Notes: generated from the sequence alone by a model not told the origin. 64,000 bases of DNA from Thiobacillus denitrificans (GCA_020723405.1 DYIY01000009.1:110427-174426); one strand, 5' to 3'; shown: positions 19,959-38,076, counted from the stretch's first letter. Numbers and translations are program-made.

Positions 19959-21065
19959 ATGCTTGTACTGAAATCCTCCAAGGACGCCTTGCTCAAGCCC
20001 CTGCAAGCAGTGGCCGGTGTGGTCGAACGCAAGCACACCCTGCCCATCCTTTCCAACGTGCTGGTGGAAGTAGTGGGTGGCCGGGCCGCTTTCGTCTCCA
20101 CGGATCTGGAAATCCAGATCACCACCTGGGCCGAGGAACAAGGCACGGCGGATGCCTCCCTCACGGTATCTGCCCGCAAGTTCCTGGACATCTGCCGCTC
20201 CCTGCCTGACCTGGAACCCATTTCCCTGGACCTTTCCGGTGAGCAGCTCAAGGTCCAGTCCGGGCGCAGCCGCTTCAGCCTGCAAACCCTGCCGGCCCGG
20301 GATTTCCCCAAGCTGCAGATTCCCGAGGGCCAGGGCCTGTCCTTCAGCCTGCCCCAGGGCAAGGTCAGGCAACTGCTCTCCCGGGTTCAGTACGCCATGG
20401 CCGTGCAAGACATCCGCTACTACCTGAACGGCATGCTCTTCTCGGTGCAGGGCAAGCGCCTCACCGTGGCCGCCACCGACGGCCATCGCCTGGCCGTGGA
20501 CGGCACCGACCTGGAAGAAGATCCTGGCCAATCGGTGGACGTGATCCTGCCACGCAAGACCGTGCTGGAACTTGGCAAGCTCCTGGGCGATAGCGACGAT
20601 CCGGTGCACATCCAGGTGAACCAGAACCAGGTGGTGTTCCGCCGCCCCGACTTCGAACTGCGCAGTAAAGTGGTGGACGGCAAGTTCCCCGACTGGCAAC
20701 GGGTCATTCCCGTGGGCCACGACAAGGTGTTCACCATCCAGCGCCAGCGCCTGTCCCAGTCCCTCACCCGGGCCGCCATCCTCACCAACGACAAATACCG
20801 GGGCGTGCGCATCGCCCTCACCAGCGGCAGCCTGCGCATTGCGTGCAGCAACAACGAGCAGGAAGAAGCCCAGGAGGAACTGGACATCGACTACAGCGGC
20901 GAACCCCTGGACATCGGTTTCAACGTCCAGTACCTGCAGGACGTACTCGGCAATCTGAGCACCGAAGCCGTCAATTGCAGCTTCGGCGACCCCACCAGTT
21001 CCCTGCTCATCACCGTGGCCGGTGAAGAGAACTTCCGCTACGTCGTCATGCCGATGCGCATCTGA
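19959..21065 (+). CDS. dnaN: DNA polymerase III beta sliding clamp
   Basis: 368 aa, MLVLKSSKDALLKPLQAVAGVVERKHTLPILSNVLVE, typical DnaN. Confidence 0.96.
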   Translation: MLVLKSSKDALLKPLQAVAGVVERKHTLPILSNVLVEVVGGRAAFVSTDLEIQITTWAEEQGTADASLTVSARKFLDICRSLPDLEPISLDLSGEQLKVQSGRSRFSLQTLPARDFPKLQIPEGQGLSFSLPQGKVRQLLSRVQYAMAVQDIRYYLNGMLFSVQGKRLTVAATDGHRLAVDGTDLEEDPGQSVDVILPRKTVLELGKLLGDSDDPVHIQVNQNQVVFRRPDFELRSKVVDGKFPDWQRVIPVGHDKVFTIQRQRLSQSLTRAAILTNDKYRGVRIALTSGSLRIACSNNEQEEAQEELDIDYSGEPLDIGFNVQYLQDVLGNLSTEAVNCSFGDPTSSLLITVAGEENFRYVVMPMRI

Positions 21066-21147
21066 CGGCAGTCGAGAGTCGAGCATGGGGAGCCGCACAA
21101 CAACGCGGCCTGCCCTCTCCACTCTTGACTCACTACTCTCGACTTAA

Positions 21148-23640
<2,493 letters not shown>

Positions 23641-27631: not shown

Positions 27632-28840
27632 CTACCCCTTCACGCACAGGACCTGTTTCAGGGTATGGACGGGCTCCACCAGATCCCGCTGGTTTTCCAT
27701 CACCTGATCGATGTCCTTGTAGGCGGCCGGAATTTCGTCCACCACCCCGCCGTCCTTGCGGCACTCCACGCCGGCCGTCTGGGCTTCCAGATCGAACCGG
27801 TCGAAGCGGCGCTTGGCGGCGCTGCGGCTCATGCGCCGCCCCGCCCCGTGGGAGCAGGAACAGAAGGACGCCGGGTTGCCCAGCCCGCGCACGATGTAGG
27901 AGCGGGCCCCCATGCTGCCGGGGATGATGCCCAGTTCCCCGGCCCGGGCCGAGATGGCGCCCTTGCGGGTGATGAACAGACGCTCACCGAAGTGCTCCTC
28001 CCGGGCCACGTAGTTGTGGTGGCAGTTGATGGCCTCTTCCTCCAGGCGAAAGCCCGGCAGCAGGGGTTTCATGGCCTCCACGATGGCCGCCATCATGCGG
28101 CTGCGGTTGAGCAGGGCGTAGTCCTGGGCCCATTCCACCGCTTCCACGTAGTCGTCGAACAGATCCGAGCCTTCAGAAAAATAGGCCAGGTCCTGGTCCG
28201 GCAGGCGGATCTGATGGCGGCGCATGTCCTTCCGCGCCGCTTCGATGAAATAGCGGCCCAGCACGTTGCCGATGCCCCGGGAACCGGAGTGCAGCATGAT
28301 CCAGACCCGGTCCGCCTCGTCGAGACAGAGCTCGATGAAGTGGTTGCCGCCCCCCAGGGTGCCGATCTGGCACAGCCAGGTTTCGTTGAAGCGGCGCTGC
28401 ATCTTCATCAGGCCCGGATGCTTGCCGACGATTACGTCCAGCCGGTCGTTAAGCGACCGCCCGATGCGTTGCAGGGCGCTGCCCCGCATGCGGCTGGCCG
28501 CGTGCTGGTTGAAGCCCACCGGGATGGCCGCCTCGATGGCCAGGCGCAGCCCGCGCAGGTTGTCGGGCAGATCGCCGGCCACCAGCGAGGTGCGCACCGC
28601 GTTCATGCCGCAGCCGATGTCCACCCCCACCGCCGCCGGGATGATGGCGTGGAGGGTGGGGATGACGCTGCCCACCGTGGCGCCGATGCCCGCATGCACG
28701 TCGGGCATGGCGGCCACGTGGCCGTGCACGATGGGCAGATCGGCGATGTTGAGCAACTGCCGGAGGGCCTCCGGTTCGATGTCGCGGGTCCAGATCTTGA
28801 CCGGTACGCGACCCTTGTTCAGTTCAATGTAATTTCCCAT
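27632..28840 (-). CDS. rtcB: RNA-splicing ligase RtcB (divergent paralog 1)
   Basis: 402 aa with the RtcB hallmark motifs MPDVHAGIGATVGSVIPT, GNHFIELC, HSGSRGIG and CSHGAGR. More diverged from E. coli RtcB than the second copy at 33068. Confidence 0.93.
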   Translation of the reverse strand: MGNYIELNKGRVPVKIWTRDIEPEALRQLLNIADLPIVHGHVAAMPDVHAGIGATVGSVIPTLHAIIPAAVGVDIGCGMNAVRTSLVAGDLPDNLRGLRLAIEAAIPVGFNQHAASRMRGSALQRIGRSLNDRLDVIVGKHPGLMKMQRRFNETWLCQIGTLGGGNHFIELCLDEADRVWIMLHSGSRGIGNVLGRYFIEAARKDMRRHQIRLPDQDLAYFSEGSDLFDDYVEAVEWAQDYALLNRSRMMAAIVEAMKPLLPGFRLEEEAINCHHNYVAREEHFGERLFITRKGAISARAGELGIIPGSMGARSYIVRGLGNPASFCSCSHGAGRRMSRSAAKRRFDRFDLEAQTAGVECRKDGGVVDEIPAAYKDIDQVMENQRDLVEPVHTLKQVLCVKG

Positions 28841-29194
28841 GATGATTCCAAAACGGTTGCGGCAAGGCCGCGGTTGTTGGAATCCGGGAGGGGAGGCGAG
28901 GCAGGAAAATGCATCGCCAAAAACAAAAACCCCCGGCTCATGGCCAGGGGTTCTCTGCTACCCGGCCCGGATTCGCCTTGCGCGAAATCCGGGCAACGTC
29001 ATGCCGGCGGACTTAGCGCGTTGTTTCCTTCAAGTTGTCAGCTGGCATGGGGTTCTCCTTGCAAAATGGGTTGAAAAAATCAGGGGGCGGATTCTGGTGA
29101 TCGGCCTTGGGGCTGTCAATGGGTTTGCCCAAGCGCGATGGCCTCGCGCCCGGAGAAGGGTTGAGTGTGTGGCGCGGAAGACACATTGTTGGAT

Positions 29195-30784
29195 TCAGCC
29201 CGCCTTCACCGCCTCAAAGTTCAACGCAAAACGCGCCAGGTATTTGCGCAGCCGATCTGCATCATTGGCCGACTTCTTGCCCTGGCGGGAAACGGCATAG
29301 AGCTGCCGACCCGCTTCCGACAAGGTGCCACAGCGGCGGCAGGTCTCGATGACGAAGGCCAGTTGGTGGCGATCAAAGAGGTCCAGTTCGTCGGCCTGGT
29401 CACCCAGCAGTTCCGCCACCGGGTCGGGCAGGGGGGTAGCCCTCCAGGTGCGGCGCAGGCGGTCGATCTCTTCGGCCACGTTGGCTTCGTTGATGCGCCC
29501 GGCGGTGCTCAGGGTGGCCATGCGCGTCACCGAGGCGCCCAGCTCGCGGAAATTGCCCCGCCATTGGGCCTGGTGGCTGGCGGCGAAGGCCAGGTAACGG
29601 CGCCGGGCCTCCAGGTTGAAGCGCACCTGCTGGCCCTGTTCCCGGGCGTGGCGTTCCAGTTCGAAATCCAGGTTGGGTTCAATGTCCTCCGGCCGCTGGG
29701 CCAGGCCCGGCAGATCGAAGGTCCACAGGTTGATGCGGGCGAACAGGTCTTCCCGGAAACGGCCTTCCGCCACCCATAGGCGCAGATCCCGGTGGGTGCC
29801 GGCGATGAGCTGGAATTCGCTGTCCACTTCCCGGTCGGCGCCAAAGGGGAAGAAGCGCTTCTCCTCGATGGCCTTGAGCAGCATGGCCTGTTCGTCCAGG
29901 CCCAGCTCGCCGATTTCATCCAGGAACAGCAGGCCCCCGTGGGCGGCCCGCAGCAGCCCGGGCCGTTCGGTCTGGGCGCCGGTGAAGGCGCCCTTCACGT
30001 GACCGAACAGGGTGGACATGGCCGAGTCGCCGCGCAGGGTGGCGCAGTTCACCTCGATGAAGCGGCCGGCCAGCCGTTGCCGCTGGCGCTTCAGTTCGTA
30101 CACCCGGCGGGCCAGGAAGGATTTGCCGGCGCCGGTGGGCCCCACCAGCAGCATGGGGGCCCGGGAGCGCCCGGCCACCTGTTCGATGCGCTCGATCATG
30201 CGGTTGAAGGCCGGGTTGCGGGTGGCGATGCCGGATTTCAGCAGGGACACGTTGTCCGTGTGTTCCCGGGCGAAGCGTTGGGCGATCTTGTCGTAGCGGG
30301 ACAGGTCCAGGTCGATGATCTCGTAGCTGCCGATGCTGTTTGCGATCTCTTTCTTGCGCGGCGGCGAAGTCTGCACCAGCCGGGCTGGCAGGGTGCGGGC
30401 TTCGGCCAGGAGGAACCAGCAGATCTGCGCCACGTGGGTGCCGGTGGTGATGTGGATCAGGTAGTCCTCGTGTTCCGGGTCGAAGGGGTAGGCCTGGGCG
30501 AAATCCAGCAGGCTGGTGTAGACCTCCTGGAAGTCCCAGGGGTCGCGCAGCTCCCGTTCCACCCGATTCACCTGGGTCTCCGGGGACACCGCGCCGATGT
30601 CCAGACGGACCCGTTCGGCCAGGCCCCGGCTGCGGGCGTCATGCATCAGCTCCAGGCGATGGACCACCAGGTTCTCCTGCTGACAGAGAGCCACGCTGGG
30701 CCGCCACTTGTCCCAACGGCCCGCGCCTTTGCCGCCGTAGTCCAGCTGGGTGCCGAGGAAGCCGAAAACCACGGTGCGCTTCAT
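29195..30784 (-). CDS. rtcR: Sigma54-dependent transcriptional regulator RtcR (CARF-domain enhancer-binding protein)
   Basis: 529 aa, collinear with E. coli RtcR. The CARF-like N-terminus is MKRTVVFGFLGTQLDYGG...WRPSVALCQQE. AAA+ Walker A GPTGAGKS and GAFTGA motif HVKGAFTGA are present. C-terminus is ...NDADRLRKYLARF. Confidence 0.93.
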   Translation of the reverse strand: MKRTVVFGFLGTQLDYGGKGAGRWDKWRPSVALCQQENLVVHRLELMHDARSRGLAERVRLDIGAVSPETQVNRVERELRDPWDFQEVYTSLLDFAQAYPFDPEHEDYLIHITTGTHVAQICWFLLAEARTLPARLVQTSPPRKKEIANSIGSYEIIDLDLSRYDKIAQRFAREHTDNVSLLKSGIATRNPAFNRMIERIEQVAGRSRAPMLLVGPTGAGKSFLARRVYELKRQRQRLAGRFIEVNCATLRGDSAMSTLFGHVKGAFTGAQTERPGLLRAAHGGLLFLDEIGELGLDEQAMLLKAIEEKRFFPFGADREVDSEFQLIAGTHRDLRLWVAEGRFREDLFARINLWTFDLPGLAQRPEDIEPNLDFELERHAREQGQQVRFNLEARRRYLAFAASHQAQWRGNFRELGASVTRMATLSTAGRINEANVAEEIDRLRRTWRATPLPDPVAELLGDQADELDLFDRHQLAFVIETCRRCGTLSEAGRQLYAVSRQGKKSANDADRLRKYLARFALNFEAVKAG

Positions 30785-30790
30785 GGGCGC

Positions 30791-30841
30791 TTATCCAAAT
30801 AGATAAATGACGAGTGCAAATTCTACGGATGTTGGAATTTG
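30791..30841. promoter_or_regulatory. Candidate RtcR upstream activating sequences (inverted repeats)
   Basis: TTATC-N6-GATAA (30791-30806) and CAAATTC-N11-GAATTTG (30817-30841), in an atypically AT-rich divergent region between rtcR and the sigma54 promoter. Confidence 0.35.
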
Positions 30842-30883
30842 TCAGGGCATGTTTTTTACCGGCAAGAGAAATTAATAATGTTT

Positions 30884-30896
30884 AATCAATGCGTTA
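30884..30896 (+). promoter_or_regulatory. Candidate IHF site (AATCAATGCGTTA; WATCAANNNNTTR)
   Basis: Matches the IHF core. Located between the candidate UAS and the sigma54 -24 element, the usual geometry for EBP-dependent promoters. Confidence 0.4.
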
Positions 30897-30924
30897 GAGA
30901 TTTGTTGCCGGCTGCCGCCCGGGT

Positions 30925-30941
30925 TGGCACGGTCCTCGCAA
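30925..30941 (+). promoter_or_regulatory. Sigma54 promoter -24/-12 (TGGCACG-GTCC-TCGCA)
   Basis: GG-N10-GC spacing is exact, with a strong match to TGGCACG-N4-TTGCW. Divergent from rtcR. Predicted TSS about 30951. Confidence 0.75.
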
Positions 30942-31059
30942 TACCTGTCCCGATCGCTGAATTGCTGCAATGGCCCACGGGCCGGGGTTTCCAGGCCCCG
31001 CCGGTGCGGTGGGACCGGGCTCAGGCCCGTCGTCGTGCCGTATGCCGCCGCAAGGAGGA

Positions 31060-31210
31060 GGCGGTTGTTGCGAGCCTGGGTGGCTCGCCGGGTTCGATTC
31101 CCGGCTCGCAAGCCTTGGATAGCTCAGAGGGTAGAGCAACCGTGCAAACGGTGTGTCGCGGGTTCGACTCCCGCTCCAAACCTGTCCTGATAAGACAGAT
31201 CGTGTCATTG
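31060..31210 (+). ncRNA. Tandem tRNA-like elements in the 5' leader (candidate Y-RNA/YrlA-like tRNA mimic)
   Basis: Module 1 (31068-31109): acceptor-like GCGAG/CTCGC stacked on T-arm CCGGG-TTCGATT-CCCGG (a minihelix). Module 2 (31113-31181): 5-bp acceptor (TTGGA/TCCAA), D-arm GCTC-AGAGGGTA-GAGC, anticodon arm replaced by ACCGT-GCAA-ACGGT (GNRA-capped stem), and T-arm GCGGG-TTCGACT-CCCGC. A CTGTC-CUGAUAA-GACAG hairpin follows (31184-31200). Confidence 0.5.
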
Positions 31211-31426
31211 CAGTACCCGCCGGTTGCGGCATGCGCAAGCACCCGCCACCGGTTCCGCCGGTTCCCGGTCCGCAAGGACGGCAAGGAACGGGCGGGCCGG
31301 GCACCCCGCCCTCCGGCCCCCGGGTCGGGCGGAGGGTGAACCGGCCCCCCGAACCTCCCCGCCCCTGTCGCCCGAAGGGCTCGTGGGACCGGTGCCCGCC
31401 GGCCACTTCAGAAAAAGGAACAAGTC

Positions 31427-32575
31427 ATGTTGAAGCGTTTTGTGGTGAAGAAGAACGAACGGGGCGCCCTGCTGAAGGACGGCGACTTCGAGCGCATCCT
31501 GGATGCCGGCCGCCACTATTTCTGGGACCCCTTGAACCACCTGTCCCTGGTGGTGTGGAAGCTGGACGCGCCCATGGATGACCGGGACGTGGTGGATTAC
31601 CTGGTCCGCCACGATCCCCAGACGGCCGACGCCTGCTTCGAAAAAATGGAACTGGGCGAGGACGAGGCCGGCCTGCGCTATGAGAACGACGTGCTGGTGG
31701 AGGTGCTGCCCCCGGGAACCCGGCGTTATCACTGGAAAGGCGTGATCGTCCATCGCCTGGATAAAGTGGACCTGCGCCAGGGGTACGGCGTGGCGCCGGA
31801 ACTGGCCGCCCGTCTGCTCCAGCCGGCCTTGCACGGACGGGCCGTGGCGGGCCTGGCCGGCTTGCTGATCGCCCAGGTGCCCGCCTACCACGTGGGCGTG
31901 CTCAAGGTGGATGGCCGGGTGGAGCGGCTCCTGGGACCGGGCGTGGAAGCCTTCTGGCGGTTCAACCGGGATGTCCAGGTGGAGCTGGTGGATACCCGCC
32001 TGCAGAACATGGAAGTCACCGGCCAGGAAATCCTCTCCCGGGACAAGGTGAGCCTGCGTCTGAACCTGGCGGCCACCTGGCGTTACAGCGACGTGGAGCG
32101 GGCCCACGGCCAACTGGTGAAACCGGCGGAACACCTGTACCGGGAACTCCAGTTCGGCCTGCGCGCCGCGGTAGGCACTCGCGACCTGGATGCGCTGCTG
32201 GAAAACAAGCAGGTCATCGACGAGGTGGTGGGTCAGCACGTGCGCAGCAAGCTGGCCGGCTTCGGCATGGAAGTGGGTAGCGTGGGCGTGAAGGACATCA
32301 TCCTGCCCGGCGAGATGAAGACCATCCTGGCCCAGGTGGTGGAAGCGGAGAAGTCCGCCCAGGCCAACGTCATCCGCCGCCGGGAGGAAACGGCCGCCAC
32401 CCGTTCCCTGCTCAACACCGCCAAGGTGATGGAGGACAACCCCGTCGCCCTGCGCCTGAAGGAACTGGAAACCCTGGAAAGGGTGGCTGAACGCATCGAC
32501 CGCATCTCCGTGTTCGGCGGCCTGGACCAGGTGTTGAGCGGGTTGGTGAATCTGCGTTCGCCGTCCTCGGGTTAG
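31427..32575 (+). CDS. SPFH/band-7 (stomatin/prohibitin-like) domain protein, cytoplasmic, no TM segment
   Basis: 382 aa with the SPFH core GVKDIILPGEMKTILAQVVEAEKSAQANVIRRREETAATRSLLNTAKVMEDNPVALRLKELETL. AAGGAA RBS present. Confidence 0.85.
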   Translation: MLKRFVVKKNERGALLKDGDFERILDAGRHYFWDPLNHLSLVVWKLDAPMDDRDVVDYLVRHDPQTADACFEKMELGEDEAGLRYENDVLVEVLPPGTRRYHWKGVIVHRLDKVDLRQGYGVAPELAARLLQPALHGRAVAGLAGLLIAQVPAYHVGVLKVDGRVERLLGPGVEAFWRFNRDVQVELVDTRLQNMEVTGQEILSRDKVSLRLNLAATWRYSDVERAHGQLVKPAEHLYRELQFGLRAAVGTRDLDALLENKQVIDEVVGQHVRSKLAGFGMEVGSVGVKDIILPGEMKTILAQVVEAEKSAQANVIRRREETAATRSLLNTAKVMEDNPVALRLKELETLERVAERIDRISVFGGLDQVLSGLVNLRSPSSG

Positions 32576-32577
32576 TC

Positions 32578-33063
32578 ATGCACGCCTGCCCCGCCGGGGC
32601 AGGCGTGGGGGAGAATGAAGTGAAGACATACAAGAGCGGAAAACAGCGTCGCGCTGAAATCAAGGCCGCACGGCTGAGCAAGCAGCATCGCGCATCCCAC
32701 CGGGTTGATGGCTTCAGGGTCCGACCCGAGGGAACCGAGCCGGTGAACCCGGCACGACTGCGCCCCAACAACAGCTACGGCGTACCCGACTTCGTCTGGC
32801 GCGGGTACTACAAGGACATGGCGTTCCGTTGCGTGGATTGTGGCGTCGAGCAGGTCTGGACCGCCCAGCGCCAGCGCTGGTGGTATGAAGTGGCCCAGGG
32901 AGACGTATACAGCACGGCTCGCCGTTGCGCCCCCTGCAGGCTCAAGGAGCGCCAGCGGAAGGAGGATGCACGCCGTGCCTGGAGGGAAGGCCTGGAAAGA
33001 AAGGCGGCGCGGCAGTTACGACCAGGGTGGGCAGGAATGGCCCCCAAGAACTTGGATAGGTGA
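32578..33063 (+). CDS. Zinc-ribbon (2x CxxC) basic protein
   Basis: FRCVDCGVEQVW...ARRCAPCRLKERQRK, Arg/Lys-rich. Alternative GTG start at 32620 lies just after the hairpin and RBS. The stop is 4 nt before rtcB2. Confidence 0.5.
   Translation: MHACPAGAGVGENEVKTYKSGKQRRAEIKAARLSKQHRASHRVDGFRVRPEGTEPVNPARLRPNNSYGVPDFVWRGYYKDMAFRCVDCGVEQVWTAQRQRWWYEVAQGDVYSTARRCAPCRLKERQRKEDARRAWREGLERKAARQLRPGWAGMAPKNLDR
32581..32607 (+). other. Perfect 12-bp GC-rich hairpin (CACGCCTGCCCC-GCC-GGGGCAGGCGTG) between the SPFH and zinc-ribbon genes
   Basis: Directly observed. There is no U-tract, so it is not a canonical terminator. It abuts a GGGGGAG RBS. Confidence 0.6.
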
Positions 33064-33067
33064 AAAG

Positions 33068-34285
33068 ATGGAACATCAGATTCTCGAAGTCGAAAACGGC
33101 AAGCCCATCAAGCTGTGGACCCAAGGCGTCCCGGTGGAGGACGCTGCCCGCCAGCAACTGATCAACACCGCCCGCATGCCCTTCATCTTCCGCCACCTGG
33201 CGGTGATGCCCGACGTGCACCTGGGCAAGGGTTCCACCATCGGCAGCGTCATCCCCACCCAGGGGGCCATCATCCCCGCCGCCGTCGGCGTGGACATCGG
33301 CTGCGGCATGATGGCCGCCCGGACCACCCTGAGCGCCACGGATTTGCCGGACAACCTGCACGGCCTGCGTACAGCCATCGAAAAGGCCGTGCCCCACGGC
33401 CGCACGGTGGGCCGCGGCAAGCGTGATGCCGGAAGCTGGGAAAACCCGCCCGAGAAGGTGGACGACATGTGGGCCGCCCTGTTGCCCGGCTTCGAGCGCA
33501 TCGTGGCCAAGTACCCGCGCCTGAAGAACACCAACCAGTACAAGCACCTGGGTACCCTGGGCACCGGCAACCACTTCATCGAAGTCTGCCTGGACGAGGC
33601 CGACCGGGTCTGGTTCATGCTGCACACCGGTTCCCGCGGCGTGGGCAACGCCATCGGCAGCCTGTTCATCGAACTGGCCCAAGCCGACATGCGCGGCCAC
33701 CTGGCCAACCTGCCGGACAAGGATCTCGCCTATTTCGAGGAAGGCAGCCCCCACTTCGACGACTACGTGGAAGCCGTGGGCTGGGCCCAGGATTTTGCCC
33801 GCCGCAACCGGGCAGTGATGATGGACCACGTCATCGCCGCCGCCCGCAGCATCATCGACAAGCCCTTCAGCGCCGACGTGGAAGCGGTGAACTGTCACCA
33901 CAACTACGTCCAGCGGGAGACCCACTTCGGCGCCGAAGTACTGGTGACGCGCAAGGGCGCCGTGTCGGCGAAGAAGGGCGAACTGGGCATCATCCCCGGC
34001 TCCATGGGCGCCAGGAGCTACATCGTGCGCGGCCTGGGCAACGAGGAAGCGTTTTGCTCATGCAGCCACGGCGCCGGTCGCACCATGAGCCGCAACGAAG
34101 CCAAACGCCGCTTCACGGTGGAAGACCAGATCCGCGCCACGGAAGGCGTGGAATGCCGCAAGGACAAGGAAGTCATCGACGAGATCCCCATGGCCTACAA
34201 GGACATCGACGCGGTGATGCACGCCCAGCGGGAGCTGGTGGAAGTGGTGCATACCTTGCGGCAGGTGGTGTGTGTGAAAGGGTGA
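33068..34285 (+). CDS. rtcB: RNA-splicing ligase RtcB (E. coli-type paralog 2)
   Basis: 405 aa, near-collinear with E. coli RtcB. MEHQILEVENGKPIKLWTQGVPVEDAARQQLINTARMPFIFRHLAVMPDVHLGKGSTIGSVIPT... and ends ...YTLRQVVCVKG. Confidence 0.96.
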   Translation: MEHQILEVENGKPIKLWTQGVPVEDAARQQLINTARMPFIFRHLAVMPDVHLGKGSTIGSVIPTQGAIIPAAVGVDIGCGMMAARTTLSATDLPDNLHGLRTAIEKAVPHGRTVGRGKRDAGSWENPPEKVDDMWAALLPGFERIVAKYPRLKNTNQYKHLGTLGTGNHFIEVCLDEADRVWFMLHTGSRGVGNAIGSLFIELAQADMRGHLANLPDKDLAYFEEGSPHFDDYVEAVGWAQDFARRNRAVMMDHVIAAARSIIDKPFSADVEAVNCHHNYVQRETHFGAEVLVTRKGAVSAKKGELGIIPGSMGARSYIVRGLGNEEAFCSCSHGAGRTMSRNEAKRRFTVEDQIRATEGVECRKDKEVIDEIPMAYKDIDAVMHAQRELVEVVHTLRQVVCVKG

Positions 34286-34372
34286 GGGGGGATTGACGAC
34301 CGGGATCCAGGCATCCGCCGGTGCAGAGAACCGGTCGATCCATGCCCCACGTACGAATAGAAAGACAAGGAA

Positions 34373-35407
34373 ATGATTGAAATCGATGGCGCCGCCGGGG
34401 AAGGCGGCGGCCAGATTCTGCGCACCGCCCTGACCCTGGCCATGATCACCGGCCAGGCCATCCGTATGGTGGCTATCCGTGCCCGACGGCCCAAGCCCGG
34501 TTTGCTGCGACAACACCTGACTGCGGTGGAGGCGGCGACGGCCATTTGCCGTGCCCGGGTGGAGGGGGCCGCGGTGGGCAGCCAGACCCTGGAGTTTCAT
34601 CCGGGCCCAATCCGTGGTGGCGACTATCGCTTCGCCATCGGCACCGCGGGCAGTTGCACCCTGGTGTTGCAGACCGTGTTGCCCGCCCTGTGGTTTGCCG
34701 ACGGCCCCAGCACCTTTGCGGTGAGCGGCGGCACCCACAATCCGGCCGCCCCACCGGCCGACTTTCTGCGGCGGTCCTGGCTGCCCGTGGTGGCGGCCAT
34801 GGGCGTGGACATGGAACTGGAGCTGCTGCGCCATGGTTTCTACCCCGCTGGAGGGGGCGAGATGTTGGCCCGGGTGCGCCCCGCGTCCCCCCTGACGCCC
34901 TGGCAGGCGCCCGCCCGGGCGCCTGCCGGCAAACCCCGCGCCGTCGCCGTGGTGGCGGGCGTCCCGGTGGATGTGGCGCGGCGGGAACTGGCCCGGCTCC
35001 AGCAGCACCTGGGTGACATGGAAACCGAGGTCCGCGTCCTGTCTTCCCGGGAAGGCCCCGGCAACGCGCTGCTGGTGGAAATTCCCTTGTCCGCCCACGG
35101 CGAAGTGTTCACTGGCCTTGGCGAACGGGGCCTGCCCGCCGAGACCGTGGCCGACCGGCTGGCCCGTACGGTGCGGGGCTTCCTGGACAGCGACGCCAGC
35201 GTGGGCGAGCACCTGGCCGACCAGTTGCTCCTGCCCCTGGCTTTGGCGGGGGGCGTTGGTTTCACGGCACCGGTGTTGTCGTCCCACGCCCGCACCAATA
35301 TGGCGGTGATCCAGCGCTTTTTGCCTGTGGAATTTGCGGTGGAAGAAAGGGAGGGCGTTGTGAAGGTGGGCGTGGTGCGACACGCGTTAACCGTGGCGGG
35401 GCCGTAA
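34373..35407 (+). CDS. rtcA: RNA 3'-terminal phosphate cyclase RtcA
   Basis: 344 aa. MIEIDGAAGEGGGQILRTALTLAMITGQ...LLRQHLTAVEAATAIC...DYRFAIGTAGSCTLVLQTVLPALWFA matches RtcA including the active-site His region. Confidence 0.95.
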   Translation: MIEIDGAAGEGGGQILRTALTLAMITGQAIRMVAIRARRPKPGLLRQHLTAVEAATAICRARVEGAAVGSQTLEFHPGPIRGGDYRFAIGTAGSCTLVLQTVLPALWFADGPSTFAVSGGTHNPAAPPADFLRRSWLPVVAAMGVDMELELLRHGFYPAGGGEMLARVRPASPLTPWQAPARAPAGKPRAVAVVAGVPVDVARRELARLQQHLGDMETEVRVLSSREGPGNALLVEIPLSAHGEVFTGLGERGLPAETVADRLARTVRGFLDSDASVGEHLADQLLLPLALAGGVGFTAPVLSSHARTNMAVIQRFLPVEFAVEEREGVVKVGVVRHALTVAGP

Positions 35408-35716
35408 TGTTCCGGTTACCTGCTACCCAACTGAGAATTGCGTTGAAGGGTTGGTACCGACTCGAAAGAGACATAAACCGGCAAGAAGCCTGGACGGCAT
35501 GTTTCTGATTGGAGCCGCCGTTCAGAGCGGTGACTGAATGCGAACTTGTCGGCCGGAGCGGACGTTCGTGTTGGATGCGGTTACAGTGTGCAATGAACCA
35601 GTTGCTGACTCTCGCCACCCTGGAAGGCTACTCCCGTTGTCGGCAGTAAGCTGCCAACTACTTACAAATTTTCCGTAGTTGTACGGCCTACACCACCTGG
35701 CCTGTATATTCTCGGC

Positions 35717-37678
35717 ATGCCCCGCATTGCTTACTACGAAGCCAACATTCAGGATTTTTTGGTTGCTGATGAAGATGCAATTCTCGGCGCGTTGTCTATG
35801 CAACATGGCTTTGCCTTGGAACACCTGCAAAAGCATGCGTGGCAGGGCCAGATTCGGATTCTGCGCAGCATTCTTTCTCCCACCCAGTTGGGCTGGATCT
35901 ACTTCGAGTTTTCGATTCCCAGGATGGGCAAAAGGGCCGATGTTGTTTTACTGACAGGCGGCGTGGTGTTCGTCATTGAGTTCAAAGTCGGTTCGCACAG
36001 CTTTGATAGCTACGCGGTTGAACAGGCGCATGACTACGCGCTTGATCTCAAGAACTTTCACCGAGGCAGTCACAATCTCCCAATTGTTCCGATTCTGATT
36101 CCTACAGCAGCGCCGCTTCAGCCAGTACCGGCGATAAAATGGGCTGCCGACCAGGTCGCCGAACCGCTGTGCCTTTCTGCCGCAAACTTGCCTGAAGCGA
36201 TTGAGATGGCAGAAAAACAATGGTCGGCAGAACCTATTGATGCCATTGCCTGGTCGCAATCGGGCTATCAACCTACCCCCACCATCGTCGAAGCCGCTCT
36301 GGCTTTGTATCGACAGCACGATGTCAAAGAAATTACCCGATCAGAAGCAGGCGCAGACAACCTTGGTCTGACAGCAAGGCGCGTTGAGCAGATCATTGAG
36401 CATGCCAAGTCAAACAGCCGTAAAGCCATCTGCTTTATTACTGGCGTACCAGGCGCAGGAAAGACGCTAGCAGGCCTAAACATCGCGACATCGCGTGCCG
36501 AGAGACACTCTGACGAGCACGCGGTTTTCCTGTCCGGCAATGGGCCACTGGTCGATGTCCTCCGGGAGGCACTTGCTCGGGACAAGGCCGAGCGGGAGGA
36601 TATCCCGCGAACACGTGCGTACCGGGAAGTCTCAACCTTCGTGCAAAACATCCATCATTTCCGGGATGAGGCTCTCGAAAGCAGGAACCCACCGATCGAG
36701 AAGGTGGTGATATTCGATGAGGCCCAGCGGGCCTGGAACCGCGACATGGCGAGCAAGTTCATGCAGCAAAAGCGCGGGCATGCCACCTTCAATATGTCTG
36801 AGCCGGCTTTTCTCCTTGACGCGATGAACCGCCACAGAGACTGGTGTGTGGTGGTCTGTCTAATTGGCGGTGGCCAAGAGATCAATACGGGTGAGGCTGG
36901 CCTAGCCGAATGGATAACTGTGTTGCGCGACCAGCATCCAGACTGGGACGTTCATGTTTCAAGCCGTCTGGACGACCGTGATTACATCTGGGACAAAGAA
37001 CTGTCCATGGAGTTGTCGAAGGGTTCGGCACAATGGGATGAATCCCTGCACCTCGGGGTATCAATCAGGTCGTTCCGCGCGGAGGCCTTGTCTGAATTCG
37101 TTGGGCATGTGGTGGACAACAGGCCTGATCAGGCATGCGTGACCTACCAGGCGATAGCGGACAAGTACCCGATCATTCTGACGCGCAGTTTGGCGGAGGC
37201 CCGTTCTTGGCTGCAGGCCAAGTCTCGCGGCAGTGAGCGTTATGGCCTTACAGCCTCATCTGGAGCAAATCGTCTGCGACCAGATGGTATCTGGATCAAG
37301 TCAAAGATAGATGCCCCTGTATGGTTTTTGAATGATAAGACGGATGTCCGTTCGTCGTACTACCTCGAAGAAACTGCGAGTGAATTCGACATCCAGGGAC
37401 TTGAGCTTGACTGGGCCTGCGTTGGTTGGGATGCCGACTTTCGTCGCGGTGATGATGAGTGGCAATACTTCAGTTTTCGAGGCACAAAGTGGCAGCGAAT
37501 GAATTCGCCAGATCGCCAGCTTTATCTCAAGAACGCCTATCGGGTACTGCTGACCCGCGCTCGTCAAGGCATGGCGATCTTTGTTCCACCTGGCGACCCT
37601 TCCGATCCGACAAGAGCGCCGCAGGTCTATGACCGTATCTATGAGTATCTCCAGCTTTGTGGAATTTCCAGTAGTTGA
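35717..37678 (+). CDS. DUF2075-type protein: N-terminal PD-(D/E)xK-like nuclease plus SF1-helicase/Schlafen-like P-loop ATPase
   Basis: 653 aa. N-terminal GKRADVVLLTGGVVFVIEFK (D...ExK nuclease-like motif), central Walker A ITGVPGAGKT, Walker B-like VVIFDEAQ, and C-terminal RVLLTRARQGMAIFVP. GC content (about 50-52%) is clearly lower than the surroundings. Confidence 0.7.
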   Translation: MPRIAYYEANIQDFLVADEDAILGALSMQHGFALEHLQKHAWQGQIRILRSILSPTQLGWIYFEFSIPRMGKRADVVLLTGGVVFVIEFKVGSHSFDSYAVEQAHDYALDLKNFHRGSHNLPIVPILIPTAAPLQPVPAIKWAADQVAEPLCLSAANLPEAIEMAEKQWSAEPIDAIAWSQSGYQPTPTIVEAALALYRQHDVKEITRSEAGADNLGLTARRVEQIIEHAKSNSRKAICFITGVPGAGKTLAGLNIATSRAERHSDEHAVFLSGNGPLVDVLREALARDKAEREDIPRTRAYREVSTFVQNIHHFRDEALESRNPPIEKVVIFDEAQRAWNRDMASKFMQQKRGHATFNMSEPAFLLDAMNRHRDWCVVVCLIGGGQEINTGEAGLAEWITVLRDQHPDWDVHVSSRLDDRDYIWDKELSMELSKGSAQWDESLHLGVSIRSFRAEALSEFVGHVVDNRPDQACVTYQAIADKYPIILTRSLAEARSWLQAKSRGSERYGLTASSGANRLRPDGIWIKSKIDAPVWFLNDKTDVRSSYYLEETASEFDIQGLELDWACVGWDADFRRGDDEWQYFSFRGTKWQRMNSPDRQLYLKNAYRVLLTRARQGMAIFVPPGDPSDPTRAPQVYDRIYEYLQLCGISSS

Positions 37679-37896
37679 AAGCCTTTGAGGCCCCAGGGGA
37701 TCGTCCGCATTACATCGGTTGCTGACGCACATCGCCCTACCTTGTGGGGCAGCTACGAGGCGTTAGCGGTCATCCAGTCGGCCTGAACTGATCGGCCGCT
37801 CAGGCCGAGTAGTGTGAATTGACCTTCCGGCAGCTTCCGAAGTAAAGCGGCAGTTCAAGCGCCTGCCTTCCCGGAGCATCGAATGGCCGCAACTGA

Positions 37897-38076
37897 CCGA
37901 CTGCCGCAGTTCGATCTGGTGACCGAAAGCCGCCGGTGGACGATGTGCCGGTGAGGTGCCACGCAAACAGCCCGGTGGATTGGCCGTATTCCTCGTTTCA
38001 CCGTTTCGTCGCCGCCGGCATCCTGCCAGCGGATTGGGGCGCGGAAGGAAATACGGCGCGGGGTTTTGGCAAGTGA
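37897..38076 (+). pseudogene. Remnant of REP-associated tyrosine transposase (RAYT/IS200-like) C-terminus
   Basis: A 59-codon ORF fragment, bounded upstream by an in-frame TGA, encoding ...CHANSPVDWPYSSFHRFVAAGILPADWG, which resembles the conserved NPV...DWP(W/Y)SS tail of COG1943 transposases. A nested hairpin lies immediately downstream. Confidence 0.3.

Follow-up and report, generated by a model that had tools for sequence, protein, structure and literature searches.

What kind of RNA-repair operon carries a tRNA-like RNA and an SPFH protein ahead of its RNA ligase, and what might that RNA do? The question is raised by positions 30785-35407 of a 64,000-nucleotide stretch of Thiobacillus denitrificans DNA, the whole of which we call the window. 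Gene calls place rtcR divergently from the remaining features, which follow one another in the order promoter, leader RNA, SPFH gene, zinc-ribbon gene, rtcB, and rtcA. We conclude that the locus is an RNA-repair operon with predicted RtcR/sigma-54 control, and that it is very probably an RtcB RNA-repair operon of the Band-7/SPFH type, in this case governed by RtcR and sigma-54. The encoded proteins, with positions counted from the first letter of the window, are as follows.

29195-30784, minus strand: rtcR (Pfam RtcR 284 bits and Sigma54_activat 164 bits)
31427-32575, plus strand: SPFH/Band-7 "slipin family" protein of 382 aa (Band_7 102.8 bits)
32578-33063, plus strand: zinc-ribbon/treble-clef protein of 161 aa (Pfam zf_Tbcl 43.5 bits)
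33068-34285, plus strand: RtcB RNA ligase of 405 aa (Pfam RtcB 432 bits, with RtcB ligase matches in the PDB)
34373-35407, plus strand: RtcA RNA 3'-terminal phosphate cyclase (Pfam RTC 272 bits)

Pfam and NCBIfam scores uphold all five gene assignments of a preliminary description of this DNA. RtcR, a sigma-54 activator with an N-terminal RtcR/CARF domain and an AAA+ domain for interaction with sigma-54, scores 841 bits against the NCBIfam RNA_repair_RtcR equivalog (cutoff 650), RtcA reaches 443 bits against its own equivalog (cutoff 352), and the true ATG of RtcB, as read from the sequence, is at 33068. The zinc-ribbon gene starts 3 nt past the SPFH stop codon, and its product, with two CxxC motifs and a pI of 10.3, is the basic zinc-ribbon protein that had been described. 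The SPFH protein has a beta-rich N-terminal region of ~145 aa, followed by an SPFH domain and then a long oligomerisation helix; its fold resembles ring- and cage-forming assemblies, with a structure model of the SPFH domain that is of moderate confidence only (pLDDT 50-70). The protein had been called cytoplasmic, and hydropathy agrees, i.e., no transmembrane segment or N-terminal hydrophobic stretch was found in it, the maximum 19-residue Kyte-Doolittle score being 1.53, in a predicted strand. Likewise, no TROVE-domain Ro60/Rsr was found in the operon, as had been noted, all five genes falling in other families and leaving no space for another.

The spacer upstream of the rtcR start contains the elements expected to control the operon.

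30791-30806, no strand assigned: palindrome TTATC-N6-GATAA, adjoining the rtcR start codon
30884-30896, plus strand: IHF consensus site AATCAATGCGTTA, between the palindrome and the promoter
30925-30940, plus strand: sigma-54 promoter TGGCACGgtccTCGCA with GG-N10-GC spacing; predicted transcription start near 30951

The sigma-54 promoter, from which rtcR diverges as previously stated, is the single match to TGGCAC-N5-TYGCW in a pattern scan of the 64-kb window (0.18 expected), and most rtcR-linked relatives keep such a promoter 460-565 nt 5' of the SPFH ATG. What had been noted as an IHF-like site matches the pattern WATCAANNNNTTR exactly, is one of 2 such matches in the 64-kb window (0.29 expected), and keeps its position in a spacer alignment of relatives. 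The inverted-repeat UAS of the preliminary description stood in part: a repeat finder returned no inverted repeat of at least 8 nt, whereas phylogenetic footprinting picked out the palindrome TTATC-N6-GATAA, ~120-135 bp upstream of the promoter. This is the only copy in the window (0.00 expected), it forms a conserved block in the spacer alignment, and it is exact and identically positioned beside rtcR in 21 rtcR-linked loci. We therefore regard the palindrome, on this sequence evidence, as a candidate RtcR-binding site (UAS).

Between the predicted transcription start and the SPFH gene lies a long RNA with several parts.

30951-31426, plus strand: leader RNA, non-coding and structured, spanning ~476 nt between the predicted start and the SPFH ATG (31427)
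30972-31049, plus strand: leader 5' domain, with closing helix GGC/GCC, a hairpin at 30980-31002 and a long helix at 31003-31046
31068-31111, plus strand: tRNA-like module 1, a minihelix of an acceptor-like stem and a T arm (Alignment A2, columns 145-235)
31113-31182, plus strand: tRNA-like module 2 ("b7a-tRNA"; Rfam tRNA 40.6 bits, GA 29)
31182-31198, plus strand: small hairpin CUGUC-N7-GACAG, 3' of module 2
31219-31403, plus strand: leader 3' domain, with long-range closing helices GCCGG/CCGGC around nested helices

The leader, conserved in sequence and length among relatives, had been described as ~475 nt of highly structured RNA, and two lines of evidence agree. First, single-sequence folding gives a z-score of -2.47. 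Second, an alignment of 39 relatives yields an RNAalifold consensus of 78 pairs, in which 94.3% of cells are paired (35-48% in slid controls) and 58 pairs show compensatory changes (23-35 in slid controls); none of 500 shuffles matched these values. Helices 1-4 of the 5' domain are 92-97% paired, with compensatory changes in 16 of 23 pairs, and helices 10-17 of the 3' domain are 83-99% paired, with such changes in 27 of 32. An alternative fold of the 3' domain, taken from the minimum-free-energy structure of the window sequence, is only 65% paired. The small hairpin is conserved in the alignments, where it varies as CUGYC/GRCAG, and lies outside the RNAalifold consensus. Searches of Rfam 15 gave no family match for either the 5' or the 3' flanking domain, and these domains may be undescribed.

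The middle of the leader consists of one and a half tRNA mimics. Module 1 forms an acceptor-like stem and a T-arm hairpin in the window's own fold, its T arm (31088-31104) shows covariation (helix 5), and a weak mascRNA-like Rfam match aligns its 7-bp stem (UUGCGAG/CUCGCAA) and T arm. Module 2 has a cloverleaf as its minimum-free-energy fold, with canonical D and T arms and with covariation in the acceptor, anticodon, and T stems. Its acceptor stem has 5 pairs only, the first two positions being mismatched, a GCAA tetraloop replaces the anticodon loop, no CCA end follows it in the window sequence, and ARAGORN reports it as tRNA-???, giving it an "anticodon" of 2 nt. Among relatives, the "anticodon" varies across nearly all loci (Met, Ile, Thr, Val, Arg, Ser, Leu, Asn, or none); GNRA or UUCG tetraloops often take the place of its loop, and many other members keep a 7-nt loop. 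Measured against a functional tRNA, module 2 thus has the cloverleaf score and lacks the conserved 7-nt anticodon loop and the 7-bp acceptor stem with CCA. The mimics keep the D-loop/T-loop elbow, as judged from their predicted structures, and are expected to be unable to decode or be charged because of the GCAA tetraloop, the 5-bp acceptor stem, and the missing CCA. Nor is the leader a YrlA by the Rfam covariance model, where it scores only 22.9 bits (gathering score 69), in an alignment that does no more than link the T arm of module 1 with the D arm of module 2.

To see which parts of the locus travel together, we compared the best 80 related loci, from Rhodocyclales, Burkholderia, Pseudomonas, and other Burkholderiales. 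nhmmer places the 5' domain at a constant offset in 76 of these best 80 loci and finds the 3' domain in 56, and module 2 is likewise found in 76, at a fixed offset 5' of the SPFH gene; the leader is thus conserved in orthologous loci, as had been anticipated. In 52 of 63 related loci an RtcB gene follows SPFH at a distance of no more than 2.5 kb, and 50 of 71 have rtcR. Of the other genes in the proposed synteny, a zinc-ribbon gene follows SPFH in 25 of 75 loci and RtcA was found in 18 of 55. Since the SPFH gene, the RNA, and RtcB are often together in relatives, the preliminary description passed the tests that it had put forward for its own refutation. Meanwhile, the RNA and SPFH occur in ~20 of the 80 loci without a nearby rtcR, the pair is also seen without RtcB, and in an alternative arrangement the same RNA and SPFH come after an HNH gene and lack a sigma-54 promoter. 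That the pair survives the absence of rtcR and RtcB identifies RNA and SPFH as the linked core, and makes a specifically RtcR-linked role less likely.

The combination of genes had been thought undescribed, which proved wrong: the operon type is not new, having been predicted through comparative genomics in 2016, and PA4581.1-PA4585 of P. aeruginosa is a member. According to Wang et al. [quoted passage not shown] Our locus shares with that system an SPFH/Band-7 gene beside RtcB and a tRNA-like RNA beside the Band-7 gene, and agrees with it on every point tested.

The P. aeruginosa locus has the same order of divergent rtcR (PA4581), CCA-less tRNA-like RNA, SPFH (PA4582/PaFlo8), rtcB (PA4583), and rtcA (PA4585), and additionally has PA4584 between the last two. 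The 5' and 3' domains and the tRNA modules of the window recur in the Pseudomonas loci of our set, which come from species other than P. aeruginosa; ARAGORN finds two tandem tRNA-likes there, module 1 being a full cloverleaf, and these loci have two full cloverleaves compared with one and a half in the window. PA4581.1, annotated as tRNA-Arg4 or tRNA-Arg, is detectable via qRT-PCR, and its level stays steady despite strong induction of the PA4582-PA4585 proteins (PMC13637947). This steadiness is a poor fit to a simple co-transcribed leader, and might be explained by processing to a stable RNA, by a promoter of its own, or by an assay that cross-reacts. H2O2 induces PA4582 along with pyocin genes (PMC1250226), and a slipin gene of Anabaena shares one translation-stress regulon with rtcB (PMC10272220). 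P. aeruginosa from which the SPFH gene had been deleted showed no phenotype in the growth, virulence, motility, biofilm, and oxidative-stress assays covered in the relevant part of PMC13086221.

Other known systems share only portions of this arrangement. The tRNA-like RNA and SPFH stand where Salmonella-type operons have Y RNA and Ro60, so that the anatomy and the analogy drawn in the preliminary description were right. The Salmonella/Deinococcus-type rsr-yrlBA-rtcBA operons have in common with the window RtcR/sigma-54 control, RtcB, RtcA, and the pairing of a ring-forming protein (here a putative one) with a non-decoding tRNA-mimic RNA; they differ in having Ro60 and YrlA, whereas the window has an SPFH protein of unrelated fold and an RNA that is not YrlA. 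The rtcR/rtcBA locus of E. coli shares the divergent rtcR, the sigma-54 promoter with an IHF site, and short bacterial-type RtcB and RtcA, but the E. coli rtc operon is not known to have a long structured leader, an SPFH gene, or a zinc-ribbon gene. In contrast to stomatin, prohibitin, HflK/C, QmcA, and flotillin, the window SPFH protein has no membrane anchor or NfeD partner, and its ~145-aa beta-rich N-terminal region is additional to what membrane SPFH assemblies possess. Its association with RNA recalls vaults, with a similarity to the shoulder domain of the major vault protein that is at the SPFH level only.

On balance, the best explanation overall appears to be a Band-7/SPFH RtcB operon whose RNA and SPFH protein form a particle for tRNA repair. 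That the particle works as an RNA-protein scaffold in the manner of Ro60-YrlA is an analogy we put forward tentatively, at just under an even chance. RtcR is activated by damaged tRNAs (PMC7790460), and from established RtcR biology we would expect tRNA halves or nicked tRNAs with 2',3'-cyclic phosphate ends to activate its CARF domain. RtcR bound to the palindrome, aided by IHF bending, would then open the sigma-54 promoter, giving a single predicted transcript of the 476-nt structured RNA followed by SPFH, zinc-ribbon, rtcB, and rtcA. In the particle, the leader would supply the RNA component and the soluble SPFH protein, assembled as a ring or cage, the protein component. Its conserved 5' and 3' domains might bind the SPFH scaffold, a purely conjectural assignment of RNA parts to protein, while the tRNA-shaped modules would engage tRNA-recognising partners, namely RtcB, RtcA, and processing enzymes, and broken tRNAs would be captured and then rejoined. 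We suggest that the basic zinc-ribbon protein serves as an accessory RNA binder.

Among the alternatives, a purely cis-acting leader survives best. Such a leader would govern how the operon mRNA is processed or translated, or how stable it is, without any function in trans, for instance through RNase P/RNase Z cuts at the tRNA-like modules or through a factor binding them. The RNA is indeed contiguous with the SPFH coding region, no terminator-like site was found between the leader and the SPFH gene, and the 3' domain stops ~10 nt before the ribosome-binding site, but that site is free rather than sequestered in the consensus structure. Minihelices and cloverleaves are classical RNase P substrates. 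The two modules resemble such substrates, CCA directly follows module 1 in ~1/3 of the 67 loci with a locatable junction, and cleavage of module 2 by RNase P would expose this CCA; however, ~270 nt of additional covarying structure would be unneeded for processing signals alone. The same RNA moreover precedes SPFH after the HNH gene, away from any sigma-54 promoter, and the P. aeruginosa RNA level is similar with or without induction of the Rtc proteins (PMC13637947). We consider a leader acting only in cis unlikely.

Slightly less probable is an uncleavable decoy, with the mimics soaking up anticodon nucleases or tRNA-targeting toxins and SPFH merely stabilising or storing the RNA. The exchange of the anticodon loop, the usual toxin target, for stable GNRA/UUCG tetraloops in many members, with the elbow kept, is what a decoy would call for, but the many members with a 7-nt loop and an arbitrary triplet are potentially cleavable. 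A decoy also leaves the conserved 5' and 3' domains and the tight link to SPFH unexplained, and would require a stress-induced leader to inhibit stoichiometrically against a very large tRNA pool.

We give distinctly lower odds to a built-in regulator, in which induction is tuned by the leader or its fragments acting back on RtcB/RtcA or on the RtcR CARF domain. A tRNA-shaped RNA made from a predicted RtcR-dependent promoter would suit this role, the CARF domain responds to tRNA fragments and nicked tRNAs (PMC7790460), and E. coli RtcA and RtcB bind that domain (PMC9650030); the loci without a nearby rtcR speak against it, the conserved partner being SPFH rather than RtcR. Finally, that an ordinary tRNA gene sits by chance between rtcR and the operon, as the score of module 2 above the Rfam tRNA threshold and the tRNA-Arg annotation of its P. 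aeruginosa homologue (PMC13637947) might suggest, is so improbable as to be nearly negligible, and we rejected a decoding identity for module 2 on account of its tetraloop without an anticodon, its 5-bp acceptor, its lack of CCA, and an "anticodon" that changes in nearly every locus at a fixed position relative to SPFH.

Within the favoured particle-forming operon, the zinc-ribbon protein is an accessory part: only some Pseudomonas loci have its gene, and in two related loci (L076 and L077) it comes after RtcB.

Protein-family searches confirmed the identity of every gene between 29195 and 35407, where rtcR stands divergent from the operon:

29195-30784, minus strand: rtcR (Pfam RtcR/CARF and sigma-54 AAA+ domain; NCBIfam RtcR equivalog, 841 bits against a cutoff of 650)
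rtcR to SPFH gene: non-coding stretch of about 640 nt
31427-32575, plus strand: SPFH/Band-7 protein (Band_7, 102.8 bits)
32578-33063, plus strand: zinc-ribbon protein (zf_Tbcl, 43.5 bits; 161 aa, two CxxC motifs, pI 10.3)
33068-34285, plus strand: RtcB (Pfam RtcB, 432 bits; start codon taken from the sequence)
34373-35407, plus strand: RtcA (NCBIfam equivalog, 443 bits against a cutoff of 352)

The operon is as the preliminary description had it, and none of its genes encodes Ro60/TROVE. Across the whole SPFH protein, sequence analysis found no hydrophobic segment of membrane-spanning length. SPFH residues 1-145 (31427-31860) resemble in sequence the first strands of an SPFH domain and are modelled, at high confidence, as repeated beta-hairpin units; taken alone, they matched no solved structure. 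For the zinc-ribbon protein we found neither a relative of solved structure nor an NCBIfam model, and no PADLOC model matches the SPFH protein, the zinc-ribbon protein, or RtcB.

SPFH homologues number in the thousands and are mostly named "slipin family protein." We scanned one genome per species and obtained more than 560 loci, of which the best 80 (handles L0xx below) were kept. These belong to Rhodocyclales, Burkholderia, Pseudomonas, and other Burkholderiales, and the closest relatives are Rhodocyclaceae and Accumulibacter. Among those of the best 80 of more than 560 loci with enough flanking DNA, a divergent rtcR is present in 50 of 71, RtcB within 2.5 kb downstream in 52 of 63, the zinc-ribbon gene in 25 of 75, and RtcA in 18 of 55.

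The sigma-54 promoter (TGGCACGgtccTCGCA, 30925-30940) has the canonical GG-N10-GC spacing, and no other site in the 64 kb fits TGGCAC-N5-TYGCW (0.18 matches expected); most rtcR-linked relatives have a sigma-54 element 460-565 nt 5' of the SPFH start. An exact IHF consensus (AATCAATGCGTTA) lies at 30884-30896, and its position is kept in relatives. Both elements had been proposed in the preliminary description and both hold, and the inverted-repeat upstream activating sequence (UAS) proposed there survives in a different form. A repeat finder detected no inverted repeat of at least 8 nt in the rtcR-promoter spacer, and a 7-nt repeat seen by eye (CAAATTC-N11-GAATTTG) was rejected as the UAS, being not conserved. 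When 21 spacers (the window and 20 relatives) were aligned, a palindrome emerged that is only a few bases away from the start codon of rtcR: TTATC-N6-GATAA (30791-30806). An exact copy in this position is present in 21 rtcR-linked loci, and the palindrome occurs once in the window (0.00 expected), with no matches to an N7-spaced variant. We infer that this palindrome is a candidate activator binding site, a role that its distance of about 120-135 bp 5' of the sigma-54 promoter fits. We consider it very likely that the locus is a Band-7/SPFH-type RtcB RNA-repair operon under RtcR/sigma-54 control.

Transcription is predicted to begin near 30951, which gives a leader RNA of about 476 nt ahead of the ATG at 31427. 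Folded as a single sequence, the whole leader has a z-score of only -2.47, and the main support for its structure is comparative. We aligned 39 leaders and derived an RNAalifold consensus of 78 pairs, which comprises the following elements:

30972-31049, plus strand: 5' domain
Within module 1, a reduced tRNA mimic, plus strand: T arm
Module 2, a full tRNA mimic, plus strand: full cloverleaf
31219-31403, plus strand: 3' domain, closed by long-range GCCGG/CCGGC helices

As controls for covariation, the pairing partner was slid by 1-3 columns, and 500 shuffles were made. Across the 39 leaders, 94.3% of cells were paired (35-48% in slid controls), 58 pairs showed compensatory changes (23-35), and the covariation score was 0.455 (0.065-0.104); 0 of 500 shuffles matched the observed values. 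The highly structured leader RNA of the preliminary description is thus borne out. Two features of the window's own fold were not retained: its minimum-energy fold for the 3' domain is 65% paired across relatives versus 94% for the consensus model, and a stem that would close the 5' leader (UGCUGCAAUG) onto a conserved GCAGUA block is unsupported by the consensus structure. In profile searches, the 5' domain and tRNA mimic were found at fixed offsets in 76 of the 80 loci and the 3' domain in 56. Rfam 15, searched with the window and five relatives, has no family for the flanking domains.

Rfam (40.6 bits against a threshold of 29) and ARAGORN both identify one tRNA-like element in the window, module 2 or "b7a-tRNA" (31113-31182). 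Its fold is a cloverleaf whose D and T arms are normal, a 4-nt GCAA tetraloop replaces the anticodon loop, and no CCA follows its 3' end. ARAGORN places such an element 250-330 nt 5' of SPFH in 59 of 80 upstream sequences, and its "anticodon" is different nearly every time, or absent. Directly 5' of module 2, module 1 (31068-31111) consists of an acceptor-like stem and a canonical T arm. Pseudomonas loci (L027, L035, L040, L049, L052, L053, L055-L058, L062, L066, and L079) have a tandem of two full cloverleaves, against one and a half in the window, and in the alignment module 1 of the window is a reduced form of their upstream cloverleaf.

Two side observations concern these modules. Of the 67 loci with a locatable junction, about a third (L002, L004, L005, L008, L009, L011, L018, L034-L037, L040, L049, and others) have a CCA that directly follows module 1 and abuts module 2, and an RNase P cut at module 2 would give module 1 a tRNA-like CCA end in these loci; the window junction (31109-31115) has GCC only. 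YrlA has a permuted order, T then D, and a weak Rfam match to YrlA (31067-31165; 22.9 bits, E 0.027) spans the full model by taking the T arm from module 1 and the D arm from module 2. This match may be due to chance, or may hint at kinship between YrlA-type RNAs and tandem tRNA mimics.

About 20 of the best 80 loci lack rtcR. Those inspected (L047, 4916-7131; L034, L036, L037, L039, L043, L050, L054, L059, L064, and others) carry an HNH-endonuclease gene, then the leader RNA, then SPFH, with HNH on the same strand. This arrangement occurs in Sphaerotilaceae- and Comamonadaceae-type loci and has neither rtcR nor a sigma-54 promoter; a "TGGC..GCCTGCC" motif considered as a variant promoter is the 3' end of the HNH-endonuclease gene. 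In L047, the locus with a gene-by-gene annotation, RtcB is absent from the vicinity, and some other rtcR-less loci keep RtcB downstream. A weakly ClpP/SDH-protease-like gene follows SPFH in L047. Since the RNA-SPFH pair persists in rtcR-less loci, and in L047 without RtcB, the leader RNA is tied to SPFH and not to RtcR or the ligase. Hence, the RNA-SPFH pair is the conserved core.

The interpretation in the preliminary description, in which a tRNA-mimic leader acts as ligand, decoy, substrate reservoir, or scaffold in an undescribed gene combination, is partly supported overall; the claim that the combination is undescribed is not borne out. Wang et al. (bioRxiv 10.1101/312249) credit Burroughs & Aravind 2016 for predicting this operon type, and note an apparent functional redundancy with YrlA and a lack of experimental validation. 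Full-text literature searches on RtcB with SPFH and tRNA-like, and on "b7a-tRNA," returned nothing beyond this preprint. The same locus exists in Pseudomonas aeruginosa, in the order rtcR PA4581, PA4582, rtcB, PA4584, and rtcA (PMC8619066). PA4582 is PaFlo8; its place within the rtc locus has been noted, and deleting it produced no phenotype in standard assays (PMC13086221). H2O2 induces PA4582 along with pyocin genes (PMC1250226), and one translation-stress regulon of Anabaena includes both a slipin gene and rtcB (PMC10272220). The intergenic tRNA-like gene of P. aeruginosa, annotated tRNA-Arg4 (PA4581.1), lacks CCA; its RNA is detectable by qRT-PCR, at a level unchanged when Rtc proteins are induced (PMC13637947). 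The PAO1 annotation as an ordinary tRNA-Arg is probably a misannotation. A possible novelty is how far the RNA extends: two covarying domains enclose one or two tRNA mimics, with no Rfam entry.

How might these parts work together? In Salmonella, activation of RtcR by damaged tRNAs is established (PMC7790460), and by RtcR biology tRNA damage would induce the operon through RtcR, IHF, and sigma-54. By analogy with Ro60-YrlA, and given the RNA-SPFH linkage, the leader RNA and a soluble SPFH oligomer would form a particle. The flanking RNA domains would bind the SPFH scaffold, the tRNA-shaped modules would engage tRNA-specific partners so that RtcB and RtcA mend broken tRNAs, and the basic zinc-ribbon protein would be an optional RNA-binding accessory. 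We offer this whole particle mechanism tentatively, at a little under an even chance. One rival, to be set beside the GCAA tetraloop, makes the leader an uncleavable decoy for anticodon nucleases; another makes it a purely cis-acting processing or stability leader, and no terminator-like site was found between 30951 and the ATG. A third, feedback on RtcR, has to accommodate the rtcR-less loci. That module 2 is a real tRNA is effectively excluded: besides its tetraloop and missing CCA, it has an acceptor stem of only 5 pairs, and the tRNA mimics cannot decode. One observation above all is not cleanly accounted for by any proposed reading, namely the constant RNA level in P. aeruginosa while Rtc proteins are induced.

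An extension of the particle mechanism, which we regard as rather unlikely, would make "b7a-tRNA" the core of a larger, undescribed class of 450-500-nt RNAs, in which one or two tRNA mimics lie between 5' and 3' domains that covary. Such an RNA and a soluble SPFH cage would together make up a vault-like particle in the cytoplasm and capture broken tRNAs for RtcB, a second, independent bacterial answer to the problem solved by Ro60-Y RNA, and the same core would also have been recruited into HNH-nuclease, ligase-free loci. Operons of this type are found widely among Beta- and Gammaproteobacteria, P. aeruginosa included. If true, SPFH-RNA pairing would offer a bacterial counterpart to Ro60-Y RNA and vault particles that is tractable, and a soluble SPFH protein with a structured RNA would extend the known roles of SPFH scaffolds. 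The full leader is absent from Rfam 15, and our alignment and consensus structure could seed a family.

The wider window holds further genes of interest. Downstream of rtcR, and on its strand, is a second RtcB paralogue (27632-28840, minus strand) that shares 59% identity with the RtcB of the operon. An equally placed and oriented RtcB copy occurs in Ralstonia pickettii (L032); in two further loci, L028 and L075, an extra RtcB lies upstream, in an arrangement that differs from the window's. Directly after rtcA, a Schlafen-group-3-like helicase (35717-37678, plus strand) matches PDC-S41, a PADLOC candidate defence protein, nearly end to end (953 bits). G+C over 35400-38000 is 0.555-0.583 versus about 0.65, and this stretch may be a small defence-gene insertion beside the repair operon. 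Because dnaN and gyrB (19959-23640) precede the rtc genes by about 6-10 kb, the window is probably near the chromosomal replication origin. Finally, a strong terminator-like hairpin (28955-28925) separates rtcR from the second RtcB, and between it and the rtcR stop is an 11-codon ORF (MPADNLKETTR; 29015-29050, minus strand) with a good ribosome-binding site.
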